This document shows positions 1 through 4,938 of a stretch of DNA of 37,258 nt, one piece after another (positions within the stretch are counted from its first letter, which is position 1; each line of letters opens with the position of its first letter). Under the pieces are notes generated by a model. That model saw only the letters and a program-made list of their open reading frames with translations, was not told the origin of the DNA and ran no database searches. The position numbers and the translations under genes are program-made. Origin of the DNA: Candidatus Methylomirabilales bacterium (lineage in GTDB: Bacteria; Methylomirabilota; Methylomirabilia; Methylomirabilales; CSP1-5); NCBI GenBank assembly GCA_046758505.1, contig JBHIAH010000019.1, positions 1 to 37,258 on the forward strand, in the 5' to 3' direction.

Positions 1-476
1 AGAAAGATCTGAGGATTCAATATCATGGCGCGACAGAGGCCTACCCGCTGCTGCTCTCCCCCACTCAGCTCATGGGGGTACCGTTGGGCATAGGAAAGCG
101 GCAGGTTCACCAGCGTCATGAGTTGCTCGGTCCGCGCCTTGATTCGCTCCGAATCCCATTTGGCGAGCCGCGCGAGGAGGGTGATGTTTGCCTCAACCGT
201 CAAATGCGGAAAGAGGCCAGTCCCTTGGACCGCATACCCGATTCGCAATCGGAGTTCGGGGAGGTGTTGATAGTCGATGGGCTTTCCGAAGACGGATACG
301 TGTCCCTGGCTCGGCCGTACCAACCCGTTGATCAGTTGTAGCAGCGTCGATTTCCCACTCCCGCTCGGGCCGACGACCGCTGTGGTCACGAGCTCTGTGA
401 AGGTAAGATCGATGTCCTGAACGGCTTTTGCGTCGCCGTAGAACTTGCTGATTTTGTCGAGTGCAATCTGTGCCAT
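1..476 (-). CDS. ABC transporter ATP-binding subunit, osmoprotectant/betaine/ergothioneine (OsmV/OpuCA/EgtV-like) type; partial, runs off the left edge
   Basis: Not in the ORF track; manual translation from ATG 476: MAQIALDKISKFYGDAKAVQDIDL..GPSGSGKST (Walker A)..RIGYAVQGTGLFPHLTVEANI..RYPHELSGGEQQRVGLCRAM (ABC signature). IGY.VQ..GLFPHLTV is typical of the QAT family. Confidence 0.9.
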   Translation of the reverse strand, partial: MAQIALDKISKFYGDAKAVQDIDLTFTELVTTAVVGPSGSGKSTLLQLINGLVRPSQGHVSVFGKPIDYQHLPELRLRIGYAVQGTGLFPHLTVEANITLLARLAKWDSERIKARTEQLMTLVNLPLSYAQRYPHELSGGEQQRVGLCRAMILNPQIF

Positions 477-524: not shown

Positions 525-1847
525 TCACCTCAGGCAGGTGCGAAAGCCCGCCATCACATCACGCCGGTCGGGGGTATAGTAGTTCCGCCAGGTATTCCGG
601 ATCATGCGGGAGCGCGTGGCCCAACTGCCGCCACGCAGGACCTTGTGGGTTCCAAACCACGGCTGCGAATACTCCTTGTACGGGTCAGCCACGAAGCCGG
701 GGTACGGTCCAAAGGCAGTGCTCGTCCATTCCCACACGTTGCCGATCATTTGCCGACAACCGAACGGGCTGTCGCCGTCGGGCAGCGCGCCGACGTCGAT
801 GCACCCCCCCGCGTGCCCGTCGAGGTTGGCCCGACTGGGGGATAGAGGTTCATCCCCCCACGGAAAGCTCCGCTTGTGCCCGGACAGTCCCCAGCTGTCG
901 GGCGTAGGCTCGGCGCTCGCCGCCGCTTCCCATTCAGCCTCGGTCGGCAAACGCCGGCCTGCCCATCGGCAGTAGGCCTCGGCCTCGTACCAGTTCACGT
1001 GGATGATGGGGTGGTGCTCCTCTAGTGGCACGATTTCGTCATACCGCCTCCGGCTCCAGCGACCGCCAGCGTCGCGATGCCAATAGACGGGGTGCTCGGC
1101 ACGCTCTCGCTCCCGCCACCGCCACCCCTCTTCGCTCCAGAACTCCCGCCTGCGATAGCCCGTGTCTTCCACGAACGCCACAAACTCGCCGTTGGTCACC
1201 GCCGCGCGCGCAATACGAAAGGGCTGCAGCGTGACGGGATGGGCCCACTTTTCATTGTCGAACACGAAAGGGAGATCCGGCGTCGCGCCGAGGAGGAATG
1301 TCCCTCCGGGAATCTCCGCATCGCCAACCAGCGGCCCGTCCCCCGCCTGCCCGGCGGGGACCTCTTCGGAAAGAGCGGTGAGTTGCGGGGGCGGGTATCC
1401 GAGCGTCTGCCGGGTGTAGGTGAACGCCTCATCGTGCATGTCCTCGTGGAACACAGCCAGGCGGTGAAAGTAGATCTCCTCCCCGTTCAGCTCGATCGAG
1501 CCGAGCCGCTGGACGATCCGGTTCATCACCTGCTGCATGTAAGCCAAGGTCTCTTCTCTCGACGGAAGCGGGAGGTCCCACCGGGTGTCGTGCGGTATCG
1601 CCATGGAGTCGTACAGCGCATCGGCATCCGCACGTATGGGCTCCGCCTTGCCGCAATGCCGCAAGACCCACTTTTCTTGGAACCACGCCACATGTCCGAT
1701 CTCCCACAGGAGCGGGTTCACGATGGCGAGGCGGGGCCCCATCATTTGCTCGTCGGTCAGGTCAGCGATCAGGGCGAGGGTCCGTGCACGGCCATCGATC
1801 AGCACGTGAGCCAACTCGGCAGCCGAAAGCGTGGCATGCTCATCCAT
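525..1847 (-). CDS. senA: SenA-like non-heme iron selenoxide/sulfoxide synthase (EgtB superfamily, DinB + FGE-sulfatase domains)
   Basis: NPLLWEIGHVAWFQEKW, LYDS..PHDTRWDLPLP, metal triad GH..FHEDMHDEA, RRLPTEAEWE, GNVWEW, and C-terminal YSQPWF..RNYYTPDRRD..GFRTC, which resemble SenA more than the EYNGKFM-type EgtB (from recall of family motifs). Confidence 0.8.
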   Translation of the reverse strand: MDEHATLSAAELAHVLIDGRARTLALIADLTDEQMMGPRLAIVNPLLWEIGHVAWFQEKWVLRHCGKAEPIRADADALYDSMAIPHDTRWDLPLPSREETLAYMQQVMNRIVQRLGSIELNGEEIYFHRLAVFHEDMHDEAFTYTRQTLGYPPPQLTALSEEVPAGQAGDGPLVGDAEIPGGTFLLGATPDLPFVFDNEKWAHPVTLQPFRIARAAVTNGEFVAFVEDTGYRRREFWSEEGWRWRERERAEHPVYWHRDAGGRWSRRRYDEIVPLEEHHPIIHVNWYEAEAYCRWAGRRLPTEAEWEAAASAEPTPDSWGLSGHKRSFPWGDEPLSPSRANLDGHAGGCIDVGALPDGDSPFGCRQMIGNVWEWTSTAFGPYPGFVADPYKEYSQPWFGTHKVLRGGSWATRSRMIRNTWRNYYTPDRRDVMAGFRTCLR

Positions 1848-1905: not shown

Positions 1906-3015
1906 CTACCCCCACACGGCCTCGGCCGTTTCCACGATCACGCGCAACTTGCGCTTCTCTTCTTCCACCGAGATGCGGTTGCCGATGATCGAGCTGGCGA
2001 ACCCACACTGGGGACCAAGGGCGAGCCGCTCTAACGGCATGAACCGGCTGGCCTCCCGGATGCGCCCGGTCAACTCCTCTTGGGTCTCGAGCCGCGCGTT
2101 CTTGGTGGAGACCAGCCCCAGGACGACGATCTTATCGTCAGGCACATCCCGCAGTGGCGCGAAGGACCCGGACCGGGCGTCGTCGTATTCGAGCAACAGC
2201 CGCTGGGCGCGGATTCCCCGGAAGAGACTTTTGGCGATCGATTCGTACCCCCCTTCGGACAGCCACCGGCTGCCCTGGTTGCCCCGTCAGAGGTGGAAGC
2301 CAAAGGTCACTCCTGGAAAGTCCCCCATCACCGCATTGTCCATCTCCAGGCCCCGTTTCAGCCACTGCTCGATGCTCCACCCCTGCGCCTCATAGAAGGC
2401 CCGGGTTTTCGGGTCGATCAGCAGAGCATAATGGGGCGCATCGAGCTGGATGTATGCCGCCCCCAGGCGAACCAACTCGCTCACCTCGCTGACCAGGATG
2501 TCCGTGACATCCGCCAGAAAATCATCCAGGGTGGGATAAGCGTTCGTGGAGTGCTCAGGCGACCAGAAGTTCACCCACAGGCTGGGACTCGGCAACGTGA
2601 TCTTGGGGATCCGCGTGGTGCGGGCTCGCAGATACGTAAACTCCTCCGCCGAGAGGTGGCGCCGGCGGCTGAGCCTGCCCACGACTCCCACAGCGGCCGG
2701 CCGCTCCAGATGCCAATCCCCCACCTCTGCATCGCCAGACCAGTCACCCCACAGAAAGGCCTCCAGGGGACACGCACCGAATCCGTCAACCGCCGCCGTC
2801 ATCTGGCTCTGAAACGACTGGCGGCGCATCTCCCCGTCGGTGACCACCTCGAGACCTACCTCCTCCTGGAGTGCCACCGCCTCATCGACGGCGCGGTCCT
2901 CGATTCCCTTGAAGGCCGCCTGCCGGATCGTCGCGGCGGCAAGATCCTGCTGGGCCTTCAACAGCCAGTGAGGTCGCAACAGGCTTCCGACGACATCGGC
3001 GCGGATTGCCTTCAT
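1906..3015 (-). CDS. Cobalamin-independent methionine synthase II (MetE C-terminal/core) family zinc alkyltransferase, 369 aa, with predicted selenocysteine at codon 243
   Basis: ORFs 2287..3267 and 1906..2196 share a frame (381 nt offset). Start MKAIRADVVGSLLRP at 3015 follows a purine-rich RBS. Motifs TDGEMRR, YIQLDAP, FHL-TGA-RGN, LLEYDD, LGLVSTK and PQCGFAS are present. The only interruption is TGA at 2287-2289, at the Zn-ligand Cys position. Confidence 0.88.
2257..2289 (-). promoter_or_regulatory. In-frame UGA plus bacterial SECIS element
   Basis: Minus strand: UGA-CGGGGCAACCA-GGGCAGCC-GGU-GGCUGUCC. An 8-bp stem (one G-U pair) starts 11 nt after the UGA with apical loop GGU, the same geometry as the E. 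coli fdhF SECIS. Confidence 0.82.
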
Positions 3016-3085: not shown

Positions 3086-4093
3086 CTACTGCGCGACGGC
3101 GGAGAGCGAAAGGGCAAAGAGGTGATCCGTGTCCGTATCCCACCGGAGCAGGTTGAGGCCGGCCTCTCTAAGCATCGCCTCGACCATCGCGCGCGTATAT
3201 TTGCAGCTAATCTCTGTCCGGATCGATTCCCCCCGCACAAAGTGTACCGCGAGATCGATCGCGTCAATCGCCACGTGATGCGACTCGCGGGCGACCAGAT
3301 GCATCTCGATTCGTGACTCGTCGCGGTTGTAAAAGGCGAGATGGTCGAACCGATCCGGAGCGAAATCGGCCTCCAGGTGTCGATTGATAACGGAAAGGAT
3401 GTTCCGGTTGAAGGCGGCGGTCACGCCCGCGGCATCATTGTACGCCCCCTCCAGGAGACCCACATCCTTCACCAGGTCCGTACCCAGCAAGAATCGGTCC
3501 TCCGGGGCGAGCTGGCGGACGACGTTCCGGAGAAAGCCGGTGGCCTCATCGGGCGTCAGGTTTCCAATCGTTCCCCCTAAAAAGATCACCAATCGAGGTC
3601 CCCCTCCCTGGAGGATCTCCACCGGTTGCTCGAAGTCGCCAATCAGGCCGTGGACGCGCAATCCCGGGTAAACCTCACCGAGCGCGTGGGCCGTCTCCCG
3701 AAGCAGGTCTTCGCTGACATCGACTGGCACATAGCAATCGAGCAGCGCGGCACGCGCCATCGCGTTGAGGAGGATGCGGGTCTTGCGCGAACTGCCCGAC
3801 CCGAATTCCACCAGGGTCGTGGGCCGACACGATGCGATCACGTCATCGGCGATCTCTGTGAGCACAGCACGCTCGGTGCGCGTCGGGTAGTACTCCGGAA
3901 GCTCGCAGATCTGCTCGAAGAGGGCTGCGCCCCGGGCGTCGTAAAAGTACTTGGGGGGCAATTCCTTTGGGGTCTTGGTCAGGCCACAGCGGACATCCTC
4001 GGCCAGCCGGGCAAACGGGTTTCCGCCCCCCGAATGGAGACCGATATGAATCCTAGACTCATGGTCCGATGGCACCATCGACGTCGGCCCCAC
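3086..4093 (-). CDS. egtD: L-histidine N-alpha-trimethyltransferase (hercynine synthase)
   Basis: KELPPKYFYD..LFEQICELPEYYPTRTE, VEFGSGSSRKT, FLGGTIGNL, AYNDAAGVTAAFNRN, IRTEISCKY. Start uncertain (GTG 4093 or ATG 4078). Confidence 0.95.
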   Translation of the reverse strand: MGPTSMVPSDHESRIHIGLHSGGGNPFARLAEDVRCGLTKTPKELPPKYFYDARGAALFEQICELPEYYPTRTERAVLTEIADDVIASCRPTTLVEFGSGSSRKTRILLNAMARAALLDCYVPVDVSEDLLRETAHALGEVYPGLRVHGLIGDFEQPVEILQGGGPRLVIFLGGTIGNLTPDEATGFLRNVVRQLAPEDRFLLGTDLVKDVGLLEGAYNDAAGVTAAFNRNILSVINRHLEADFAPDRFDHLAFYNRDESRIEMHLVARESHHVAIDAIDLAVHFVRGESIRTEISCKYTRAMVEAMLREAGLNLLRWDTDTDHLFALSLSAVAQ

Positions 4094-4116: not shown

Positions 4117-4938
4117 TTATTTCGCCCCGAGTTGCTCCTGTGCGGCTCGCGCAAAACGCTCCAGACTGGTCAGGTGGCTTGGCAACTCTTCGCTCAGCGA
4201 CGCGTCTTCCGTACCGGGGTCAAGGACGAGCCGATTGCGGATCTCGATGAGCTGGCCCAGTTCGCGAGCCAGACCCGGCTCGAGCTGACCAACCTCTGCC
4301 AGGACCTCGGGAATATCCGCGAAGTCTCTGGGAGGCCGGAGTTTCATGGCAGTGATGAGCTCAAGACAGACCGCAAGCGCACATGTAATGGCGGACTGAA
4401 GAAAATAGCGGCCGGCTCCCTCTTGAATCGGATCCGCTGCGGCCGCCTTCTCGAAGCCTCGCAGTTGACCGATGCAGCGTTCCATCTGCCCAAGCCTTGC
4501 TGTCATCTCGTCCCTGCGGATCGTCACGGCGTCCTCCATCGGATGCAGCTCCCACCCGAGCATCTGCCTGAGATCGAAGTACCGCCCCCAGACACCTCTC
4601 TCAAAGGCGATCCGCGCCTCTTCGTCACGGCTGTAGACCACCCGGCCCGCCGTGAGGACAGCACCACGAAATGTCAATGGTGTCTCGTTCAGAATCCGCA
4701 CCCCGGCGCCGGGAACCGCCAGCATCTCTTCCAGTAAAGTCTCCAGGCGAATCTCCACATGGAAGTAACTCCCGGGTGGAAGGTTTGGGTCCATAAAGGC
4801 AGCGATCTGCACATCACGAAGGGCGGGAAAATCCTCGGGCATGGCGATGCCGTAGGCGAACAGGGTCGGGGTCTCGCCGAGTAAGTTCTCTGCCTCCGCC
4901 TGGAGCCGCTCGAAGAGTTGAGATCGCTCACAGTTCAT
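4117..4938 (-). CDS. Fused MNT (MntA-like) nucleotidyltransferase + DUF86/HEPN (HepT-like) protein, catalytic motifs degenerate
   Basis: N-half LFAYG..RDVQIAAF..VRILNETPLTF..G.VVYSRDEEARIAFE..YFD matches the MntA fold. C-half RYFLQSAI..PPRDFADI..LAEVG..IRNRLV matches DUF86. Confidence 0.75.
   Translation of the reverse strand: MNCERSQLFERLQAEAENLLGETPTLFAYGIAMPEDFPALRDVQIAAFMDPNLPPGSYFHVEIRLETLLEEMLAVPGAGVRILNETPLTFRGAVLTAGRVVYSRDEEARIAFERGVWGRYFDLRQMLGWELHPMEDAVTIRRDEMTARLGQMERCIGQLRGFEKAAAADPIQEGAGRYFLQSAITCALAVCLELITAMKLRPPRDFADIPEVLAEVGQLEPGLARELGQLIEIRNRLVLDPGTEDASLSEELPSHLTSLERFARAAQEQLGAK

Follow-up and report, generated by a model that had tools for sequence, protein, structure and literature searches.

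The window analysed here, the whole stretch of 37,258 nt at positions 1 to 37,258 of contig JBHIAH010000019.1 (assembly GCA_046758505.1, Candidatus Methylomirabilales bacterium), carries on its minus strand a gene for a short protein resembling the cobalamin-independent methionine synthase MetE, with one in-frame TGA and with genes of selenoneine synthesis on either side. The complete coding sequence (1906..3015, minus strand) comprises 369 codons, from the ATG at 3015..3013, whose Met is also the start of the orthologues, to the TAG at 1908..1906. Its translation bears out the preliminary description, which had reported one frame with a single internal stop: this stop is the TGA at 2289..2287, codon 243, in the residue context F-G-F-H-L-U-R-G-N, where U denotes the putative selenocysteine (Sec). 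The codon (2287..2289) stands at the Cys position of an H-x-C zinc motif, and its alignment column holds TGA and Cys only. The other predicted zinc ligands named in the same description are intact in the translation, namely His241 (codon at 2293..2295, the H of H-x-U), Glu276 in LLEYDD (2188..2190) and Cys337 in PQCGF (2005..2007), all on the minus strand. Starting 11 nt past the UGA, and likewise as described, the sequence can fold into a hairpin with an 8-bp stem and a 3-nt loop, GGGCAGCC-GGU-GGCUGUCC (2275..2257; 2257..2275 on the minus strand, codons G248 to S253), which resembles a selenocysteine insertion sequence (SECIS).

Our comparative analyses revealed that 3015..1906 (minus strand) is an intact gene under selection, with its UGA exactly where all non-UGA relatives carry Cys. 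In 61 related genomes, nine orthologues have TGA at this column (76–100% identity; one of them partial), and Cys is present in four more distant orthologues and in seven paralogues (30–34% identity). A wider survey, which scanned one genome per species, gave about 600 relatives; among the best 80 of these roughly 600 loci, codon 243 is TGA in 28, TGC in 42 and TGT in 10, and never TAA or TAG. The search for TGA and Cys homologues suggested in the preliminary description thus yielded both, at the same column. Three of the 28 TGA loci come from genomes already among the nine, as matching contig numbers and coordinates indicate, and the total is therefore 34 TGA genomes. The Sec forms fall under ten phylum labels: Methylomirabilota, Poribacteria, Acidobacteriota, Latescibacterota, Chloroflexota, Gemmatimonadota, Bacteroidota, Binatota, Thermodesulfobacteriota and Myxococcota. 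Between seven Methylomirabilota orthologues (21 pairs, dS 0.28–1.7), the median dN/dS ratio of non-synonymous to synonymous substitution rates is 0.133 for codons 1–242 and 0.136 for codons 244–368. Equal constraint on the two sides of the TGA implies that the downstream part is translated.

The source genome (2.99 Mb, 96.8% complete, 62.8% G+C) has the machinery that Sec insertion needs. The genes selA (607 bits), selB (333 bits, truncated by a contig end) and selD (407 bits) as well as a tRNA-Sec (80 bits) all score over the cut-offs of their models, which answers the preliminary description's question about selA, selB, selC and selD; the selD gene carries one in-frame TGA of its own and would itself be Sec-containing. 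TGA ends 628 of the 1264 long open reading frames (ORFs) with high third-position G+C, more than any other stop, and is therefore a normal stop codon in this genome that has not been reassigned. SelA is present in 26 of the 28 TGA-form genomes of the survey; of the 52 Cys-form genomes, 22 were tested, and 14 of these have it. One of the Cys-form genomes, flagged as unpublished (G106, locus L099), enters this tally and also the codon, loop, tree, Arg-codon and invariance counts, and no conclusion rests on it. Contigs from four DNA sequencing runs cover the TGA without any difference, which answers the read-support check proposed earlier in favour of the TGA, although these runs belong to one study that is possibly the source of the assembly and hence are not independent. 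In all four runs the Logan contigs break at or near 2260–2289 (region 2239..2312), and the summed word depth there rises about two- to five-fold. This split of the assembly graph at the TGA–hairpin stretch is probably due to several co-occurring strains or species that share the conserved stretch. UGA243 is very probably read as Sec, through SelB and Sec-tRNA(Sec), which would give a 369-residue single-barrel MetE-like protein of the YxjG/YxjH/1YPX type. The column conservation, the dN/dS ratios and the Sec machinery support the original proposal of recoding as opposed to a nonsense mutation.

The hairpin that follows the UGA agrees with the bacterial SECIS model on all of its constraints. The parts of a 2026 review of the prokaryotic selenoproteome drawn on here give a stem of 4–16 bp, a loop of 3–9 nt that begins with G (mostly G[G/U]), a distance of 16–37 nt from UGA to loop and a minimum free energy of −7.5 kcal/mol or lower (PMC13188914); the present hairpin has 8 bp, the loop GGU, 19 nt from UGA to loop and −12.8 kcal/mol. 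Folded alone, its 19 nt are exceptionally stable (z = −3.8; none of 200 shuffles is as stable). The SECIS of the selD gene in the same genome is different, with a 9-bp stem and a GUG loop 24 nt past the UGA, but is also compatible with the model; FdhA (TIGR01553) had no match over the cut-off in this genome, and none with a TGA. The stem of the MetE-like gene is encoded by the codons of G-S-R-W-L, a peptide without variation across the family, and the series AGC-CGN-UGG-CUN can pair with itself. A core of 4 bp (AGCC/GGCU) is therefore forced by the invariant S-R-W-L. We compared this region between the Sec forms (33 distinct ones) and the Cys forms (56 distinct ones). The four loop-proximal pairs form in 33/33 Sec forms and, depending on the pair, in 53–56 of the 56 Cys forms. 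A loop of the type G[G/U]U is found in every Sec form (GGU in 28, GUU in 5) and in 12/56 Cys forms, 42 of which have GCU. The fifth pair forms in 31/33 Sec and 32/56 Cys forms, and five or more contiguous pairs occur in 31/33 and 29/56, respectively. The Arg codon of the loop is CGG or CGT in each of the 27 distinct Sec genes, whereas at the other 823 Arg positions of the same genes this pair of codons accounts for just 39%; among the 52 Cys genes, 39 have CGC in the loop. In our reading, the peptide would pre-form the stem, and selection in the Sec forms would act on the loop and on the extension of the stem.

A gene with such a pre-formed core may change easily from Cys to Sec. Because S-R-W-L provides the core of the hairpin, the conversion of a Cys form would require little beyond TGY to TGA and CGC to CGG or CGU. 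This ease fits the repeated switches seen in a maximum-likelihood tree, a quick one, built from 88 rows after exclusion of the partial L031 and of four rows duplicating other loci. On this tree, the Sec/Cys label must have changed 11 times or more, and at least three of the changes are forced by well-supported branches. Sec and Cys forms are, for example, sisters within Anaerolineales and within another clade of Chloroflexota. A peptide-encoded hairpin can thus pre-adapt a gene for Cys-to-Sec conversion.

The protein is MetE-like, as had been recognised from the sequence. It matches the catalytic domain of cobalamin-independent synthases (Pfam PF01717) with 48.2 bits (cut-off 21), the match spanning residues 18–365, but not the models of full-length MetE (TIGR01371/PRK05222; 30.8 bits against 930), which describe two-barrel proteins of about 750 residues and not 369. 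Among solved structures, the nearest is 1ypx from Listeria (E = 3e-47, or 1.6e-66 with a profile), a ‘putative vitamin-B12 independent methionine synthase family protein’ whose HiCRGN motif aligns with HlURGN. An AlphaFold2 model (mean predicted local distance difference test score 79.7, predicted TM score 0.84) gave as top Foldseek matches 1ypx and the zinc-bound MetE barrels of Thermotoga maritima, Neurospora crassa and Candida albicans (E = 1e-17 to 1e-19); the matches to 1t7l, 1xpg, 4ztx and 4l5z, with E of about 1e-18 and query TM scores of 0.71–0.76, indicate a (beta/alpha)8 barrel of the MetE type.

His241, Sec or Cys at 243, Glu276 and Cys337 are invariant in all 88 family members, as are the R-G-N and E-Y-D-D motifs. 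The zinc of T. maritima MetE is reported to be bound by His618, Cys620, Glu642 and Cys704, and homocysteine is held by Ser411, Glu462 and Asp577, which grip its amino and carboxylate groups (PMC539065). The H-x-U motif was matched against 1ypx, where His241 aligns with the H of HiCRGN, and Cys337 was aligned by HMMER with NPDCGLK of C. albicans MetE; we infer the equivalence of Glu276 with Glu642 from motif order, and the T. maritima numbering likewise. S11, E62 and D192, also invariant in 88/88, align with the GS, HGE and DEP motifs of C. albicans MetE. It is fairly probable, judging from these correspondences, that Sec243, His241, Glu276 and Cys337 form a catalytic zinc site in which Sec replaces the first Cys of the H-x-C...E...C set. 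The earlier placement of Sec at the zinc-ligand Cys therefore stands as regards the position in the H-x-C motif, and zinc ligation itself is read from alignment and fold. The source genome also contains two adjacent short MetE-type genes on contig C5 (43252–45158, minus strand; 342 and 353 residues; PF01717 266 and 109 bits), probably the housekeeping methionine synthase pair. The Sec form is thus an extra paralogue. A full-length MetH was not found in this genome, in which a 332-residue ORF on contig C4 resembles the Hcy domain only.

The MetE-like gene forms the centre of a selenoneine operon on the minus strand, a context that the preliminary description had not noticed. Upstream, separated from its start by 70 nt, lies egtD (3086..4093), which encodes the histidine N-alpha-trimethyltransferase that makes hercynine (TIGR03438, 368.5 against 290.9 bits). 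A selenoneine synthase gene of the senA type (525..1847) begins 58 nt past the stop of the MetE-like gene; this protein scores 539.9 bits with the SenA model NF041186 (cut-off 420) and 360 with the EgtB model, equal to the cut-off of 360. After a further 48 nt follows the gene for a ProV-like ATP-binding cassette (ABC) transporter ATPase of the betaine/choline family (3..476; PF00005; TIGR01186 132.9 bits on the partial protein), which is cut by the end of the window; such a gene is also found 3′ of senA in orthologous loci. On the other side of egtD, a 273-residue ORF (4117..4938, minus strand) matches weakly an MntA-type nucleotidyltransferase antitoxin (residues 40–125) and a HepT-type RNase toxin (149–264). 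It has the appearance of a fused protein resembling type VII toxin–antitoxins and is 52–59% conserved in three orthologous loci.

The order egtD – MetE-like gene – senA is kept in all seven loci of Sec orthologues whose flanks reach both genes, and the remaining two, cut by contig ends, show one of egtD and senA. In Methylomirabilota of another family, a Cys form is part of a cluster senA – egtD – ABC ATPase – fused permease/binding protein – MetE-like gene; on the tree, it nests among Actinomycetota sequences and away from the Sec clade. These separate positions indicate that two branches of the family were recruited into selenoneine clusters independently. Further arrangements are egtD – Sec form – senA – ABC (L076), Sec form – transglutaminase-like gene – senA (520 bits) – senB in a latescibacterotal locus (L075), and egtD – Cys form – ... 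– putative selenate-binding protein (TIGR04553, 374 bits) – selD/senC – senA in Gemmatimonadota (L108). MetE-like relatives therefore sit in selenoneine clusters of at least four lineages. On the larger scale, SenA is encoded within 6 kb in six of the best 80 of the roughly 600 loci. Outside the selenoneine clusters, an MttB-superfamily methyltransferase gene lies directly upstream of a Sec form in one Anaerolineales genome (L078, 4409–5965, plus strand), a gene resembling histidine ammonia-lyase, below the HutH cut-off, lies directly downstream of a Cys form in Gaiellaceae (L137, 7092–8525, plus strand), and an ATP-grasp gene and a major facilitator superfamily transporter gene are upstream of the MetE-like gene in L137 and L143. 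These neighbours hint at histidine-betaine metabolism.

SenA without a recognisable SenB is a feature of these Methylomirabilota. No SenB over the cut-off of its model (TIGR04348, 300 bits) was found in the source genome, 96.8% complete, in which the best match, on another contig, reaches 87.8 bits; a weak match of this kind is also seen in genomes without SenA. A SenA-type synthase is present in 14/14 other genomes of family f1 and in 17/18 genomes of family f7, and SenB exceeds the cut-off in none of these 32 genomes, 31 of which have a SenA match. Family f4 alone has senB, in four of six genomes and directly adjoining senA. These SenA and SenB tallies include G021, a genome flagged as unpublished, on which no conclusion rests. 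The source genome has one SelD, the Sec-containing one on contig C6 and not beside senA, which could serve in both the SelD and the SenC roles. A second, partial SenA-like fragment lies at the edge of contig C45 of the same genome (6–509; 187.6 bits), and in a relative (G044, contig C20, 22022–22522) a SenA-like fragment of 147 bits contains a TGA in frame. In the latescibacterotal metagenome-assembled genome (MAG), senB (L075, 9430–10383, plus strand) has one in-frame TGA, codon 130, in a variable stretch. We considered a Sec-containing SenB and rejected it, since the TGA aligns with Arg in four of four homologues and therefore probably represents a CGA-to-TGA nonsense change or an error; it is a useful contrast to the TGA of the MetE-like gene.

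For the function of the protein we tentatively put forward, at a little under an even chance, a methyltransferase of homocysteine (an alpha-amino-acid thiol or selenol) that supports EgtD through the methyl cycle. The substrate thiolate would bind the zinc and attack a methyl donor, which may be a methyl-folate, a methyl-corrinoid or another compound. Homocysteine arising from the three S-adenosylmethionine (SAM)-dependent methylations of EgtD would be returned to methionine, sustaining hercynine and selenoneine synthesis. Given that EgtD spends three SAM per hercynine, an enzyme that regenerates methionine makes metabolic sense in this operon. The invariant Ser, Glu and Asp, which grip a free amino and a carboxylate group, point to a homocysteine-like substrate and not to a trimethylated betaine. 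Previous reports on related proteins described a Met T-box upstream of yxjH and its co-transcription with luxS (PMC6004538), and the S-bacillithiolation of MetE Cys730 and of YxjG under NaOCl, causing methionine auxotrophy (PMC4360819). MetE without zinc, moreover, links its two ligand cysteines in a disulfide (PMC539065). Sec in place of Cys would tune or raise the reactivity of the zinc-bound nucleophile. Sec resists over-oxidation, and another possibility would be that a selenolate ligand keeps the site reactivatable, sparing it lasting oxidative inactivation, known for MetE and YxjG at active-site cysteines, under the conditions in which the antioxidant is made. Taken as a whole, the explanation that we favour is likely to hold, with Sec recoding as its firmest part, the zinc site next and the homocysteine methyltransferase as its least certain part.

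Several observations weigh against this explanation, at the level of the hairpin, of the family or of the function. The 66-nt context of the hairpin is unexceptional (z = −0.54; 53/200 shuffles are equally good), and a crude scan of the source genome found a hairpin after 463 of 1994 TGA candidates, which at 63% G+C is too unspecific for a comparison of SECIS elements. With hairpins so common in a high-G+C genome and an ordinary 66-nt context, the hairpin alone is weak evidence, and it is the comparative data that carry the case. The core is, moreover, equally present in the Cys forms, so that the stem is not independent evidence. Covariation, which the preliminary description had proposed as a check, is weak as well: over 28 distinct rows, one pair shows double changes, in two cells, the 87.9% of cells that pair are reached by 26/500 shuffles, and the covariation score of 0.179 (0.152 when shuffled) is reached by 8/500, all of these numbers being indicative only, as related sequences are not independent. 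A scan of the window with Rfam gave no match. The ‘canonical SECIS’ of the preliminary description therefore holds in so far as the hairpin agrees with the model; the core is forced by the peptide and shared with Cys homologues, and what distinguishes the Sec forms is confined to the loop letters and the fifth pair. The search for SelA had no match in two of the 28 TGA-form genomes, both MAGs whose completeness is not known. The protein is related to the short methionine synthases PRK06520 and PRK06233 but is no member by the NCBIfam thresholds (239.1 against 313 and 217.3 against 576 bits). As to function, selD lies 0.6–2.0 kb downstream of the Sec form in four of four Poribacteria loci (L067, L069, L070 and L124), an adjacency that hints at a selenium-specific role and that a place in the methyl cycle does not predict. 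In L067 and L069, the selD ORF begins only at model position 32–58, as expected if selD itself contains Sec. Neighbourhoods outside the selenoneine clusters are heterogeneous: no conserved neighbour emerged from 111 neighbouring ORFs in 29 of the 80 loci. Finally, six congeneric species have senA and selA without an orthologue of the MetE-like gene, which makes this gene accessory (G007, flagged as unpublished, is one of the six, and no conclusion rests on it).

Other readings of the UGA and of the residue that it encodes are less probable. A recent nonsense mutation or an assembly error has a negligible probability. Young pseudogenes do look like this, with one stop in a frame that is intact elsewhere, and senB of L075 is a true example, but the TGA of the MetE-like gene is conserved in 34 genomes, with dS of up to 1.7 between congeners, the contigs of the four runs agree, and the downstream dN/dS is 0.136. 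The conservation of the TGA refutes this reading, and machinery, TGA conservation, dN/dS and the co-occurrence of SelA together exclude it. Termination at UGA243, or near-cognate suppression with Trp or Cys, giving a 242-residue fragment or a mixture, is very improbable: TGA is indeed the commonest stop of the source genome, but the 126 codons downstream are equally constrained and include two invariant zinc-ligand positions, the stop is always TGA and always aligned with Cys, and the loop letters are selected in TGA forms only. Accepting Sec, the residue might act mainly as a redox or nucleophilic group, in a selenenylsulfide with Cys337 or as a Se-methyl-Sec carrier in a ping-pong transfer. 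According to the sections of the selenoproteome review drawn on here, catalytic redox residues make up nearly all of the Sec/Cys pairs known (PMC13188914), and a disulfide can join the two zinc-binding cysteines of MetE, seen as Cys620–Cys704 in the zinc-free enzyme (PMC539065). We regard this role as improbable, given that the four ligand positions, R-G-N and E-Y-D-D are invariant in Sec and Cys forms alike, which points to a common metal site, and that the protein has no thioredoxin-like motif.

A more serious competitor concerns the pathway. The same selenoprotein may be a dedicated enzyme of selenoneine metabolism, which would methylate or demethylate the selenium of selenoneine (Se-methylselenoneine), take a methyl group from a histidine betaine or pass one to it, or help to supply the selenium donor where SenB is missing. 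Its location in selenoneine clusters of at least four lineages, the recruitment of two unrelated branches within Methylomirabilota, the adjoining selD in all four Poribacteria loci, the lack of a SenB over the cut-off in the source genome and in 32 other genomes of families f1 and f7, and neighbours such as the MttB-family gene (L078) and the lyase resembling histidine ammonia-lyase (L137 and L143) all speak for this role. We nevertheless consider it unlikely, because the residues that bind the amino and carboxylate groups of homocysteine are invariant and would not be needed for a trimethylated betaine, because the six congeneric species keep senA without the MetE-like gene, and because 74 of the best 80 of the roughly 600 loci have no SenA within 6 kb. 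In its most far-reaching form, to which we give a similarly small chance, the protein would be an undescribed fifth component of selenoneine metabolism, in which a zinc-selenolate site methylates or demethylates a selenol (selenoneine/Se-methylselenoneine or selenohomocysteine), or helps to supply the donor in the SenB-less Methylomirabilota. If this were true, Sec as a ligand of a catalytic zinc would have been shown in a natural enzyme for the first time.

The MetE-like selenoprotein adds to the bacterial selenoproteome a widespread and so far uncatalogued family of short relatives of the MetE methyltransferase, in which Sec takes the place of the predicted zinc-ligand Cys of H-x-C and for which recoding is, on the comparative data, very well supported; in the present survey alone it spans 34 genomes under ten phylum labels. 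The preliminary description did not count methionine synthase II among the classic bacterial selenoproteins, and in agreement with this no MetE-type or PF01717 entry appears in Table 1 of the 2026 review (119 families or subfamilies), nor do the parts of its text covered here hold anything relevant on methionine synthase, MetE, homocysteine, PF01717 or B12 (PMC13188914). A term search in the portions covered of Peng et al. 2016 and of the deep-Sep paper did not find a MetE-type selenoprotein, and neither did a full-text literature search, in which Haft and Gwadz 2023, Haft and Tolstoy 2025 and Deng et al. 2026 were covered only through the table of the review, so that their supplements might list the family. 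NCBIfam release 20 has no selenoprotein model for it, and the Cys forms go under the database name ‘cobalamin-independent methionine synthase II family protein’. Deng et al. 2026 reportedly predicted 63 selenoproteins in one Methylomirabilota MAG. Standard annotation splits the Sec gene or labels it as a pseudogene. One operon here ties Sec-dependent translation to the selenoneine pathway and draws attention to the SenA-bearing Methylomirabilota without recognisable SenB. Sec in the catalytic zinc site of a non-redox methyltransferase would be an unusual use of selenium, and natural Sec and Cys forms side by side make the reason for Sec directly testable.

Compared with known systems, the protein is closest to 1YPX, YxjG/YxjH and the PRK06520/PRK06233 proteins, with which it shares a length of about 370 residues, a single MetE-type barrel and the HxCRGN, LEYD and PQCGF motifs. 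These have Cys in place of its Sec, and genes of the YxjG/YxjH type are regulated by methionine in Firmicutes, while the present gene is part of a selenoneine operon. Full-length MetE from T. maritima, E. coli or C. albicans has the same catalytic barrel, His/Cys/Glu/Cys pattern and homocysteine-binding Ser/Glu/Asp, but differs in its N-terminal duplicated barrel, which shapes the folate-polyglutamate site and is missing here; identity is 15–18%, and Sec would stand at the first Cys ligand. Like the selenoneine clusters senA–senB–senC with or without egtD (bioRxiv 10.1101/2022.04.13.486033; PMC13674229), the locus combines senA and egtD, which flank the MetE-like gene, and it has the betaine-type ABC transporter that, according to the part of that report covered, is often found beside such synthases (PMC13674229). 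Unlike in those clusters, no senB of this genome reaches the cut-off and senA has no senC next to it, and the MetE-like gene is missing from the families co-encoded with sulfoxide/selenoxide synthases in Table 1 of the same report, as far as it was covered (PMC13674229). Genes of the E. coli fdh type, with a SECIS inside the ORF, are alike in the hairpin after the UGA, whose small loop contains G[G/U], in the occurrence of Sec/Cys pairs and in the need for selA, selB, selD and tRNA-Sec; the stem of the MetE-like gene is, by comparison, largely dictated by the peptide, and its Sec is a predicted zinc ligand in a non-redox methyltransferase. To our knowledge, no natural Zn–Sec site has been shown experimentally. 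Sec does replace a metal-ligand Cys in FdhA (Mo/W) and in [NiFeSe] hydrogenases, and the parts of the selenoproteome review drawn on here also list predicted metal-binding selenoprotein families, namely CobW-related proteins, SaoB/SaoC and SO_0444 Cu/Zn efflux proteins (PMC13188914). The MetE-like selenoprotein would differ from these in that its metal would be a zinc in a site of alkyl transfer.

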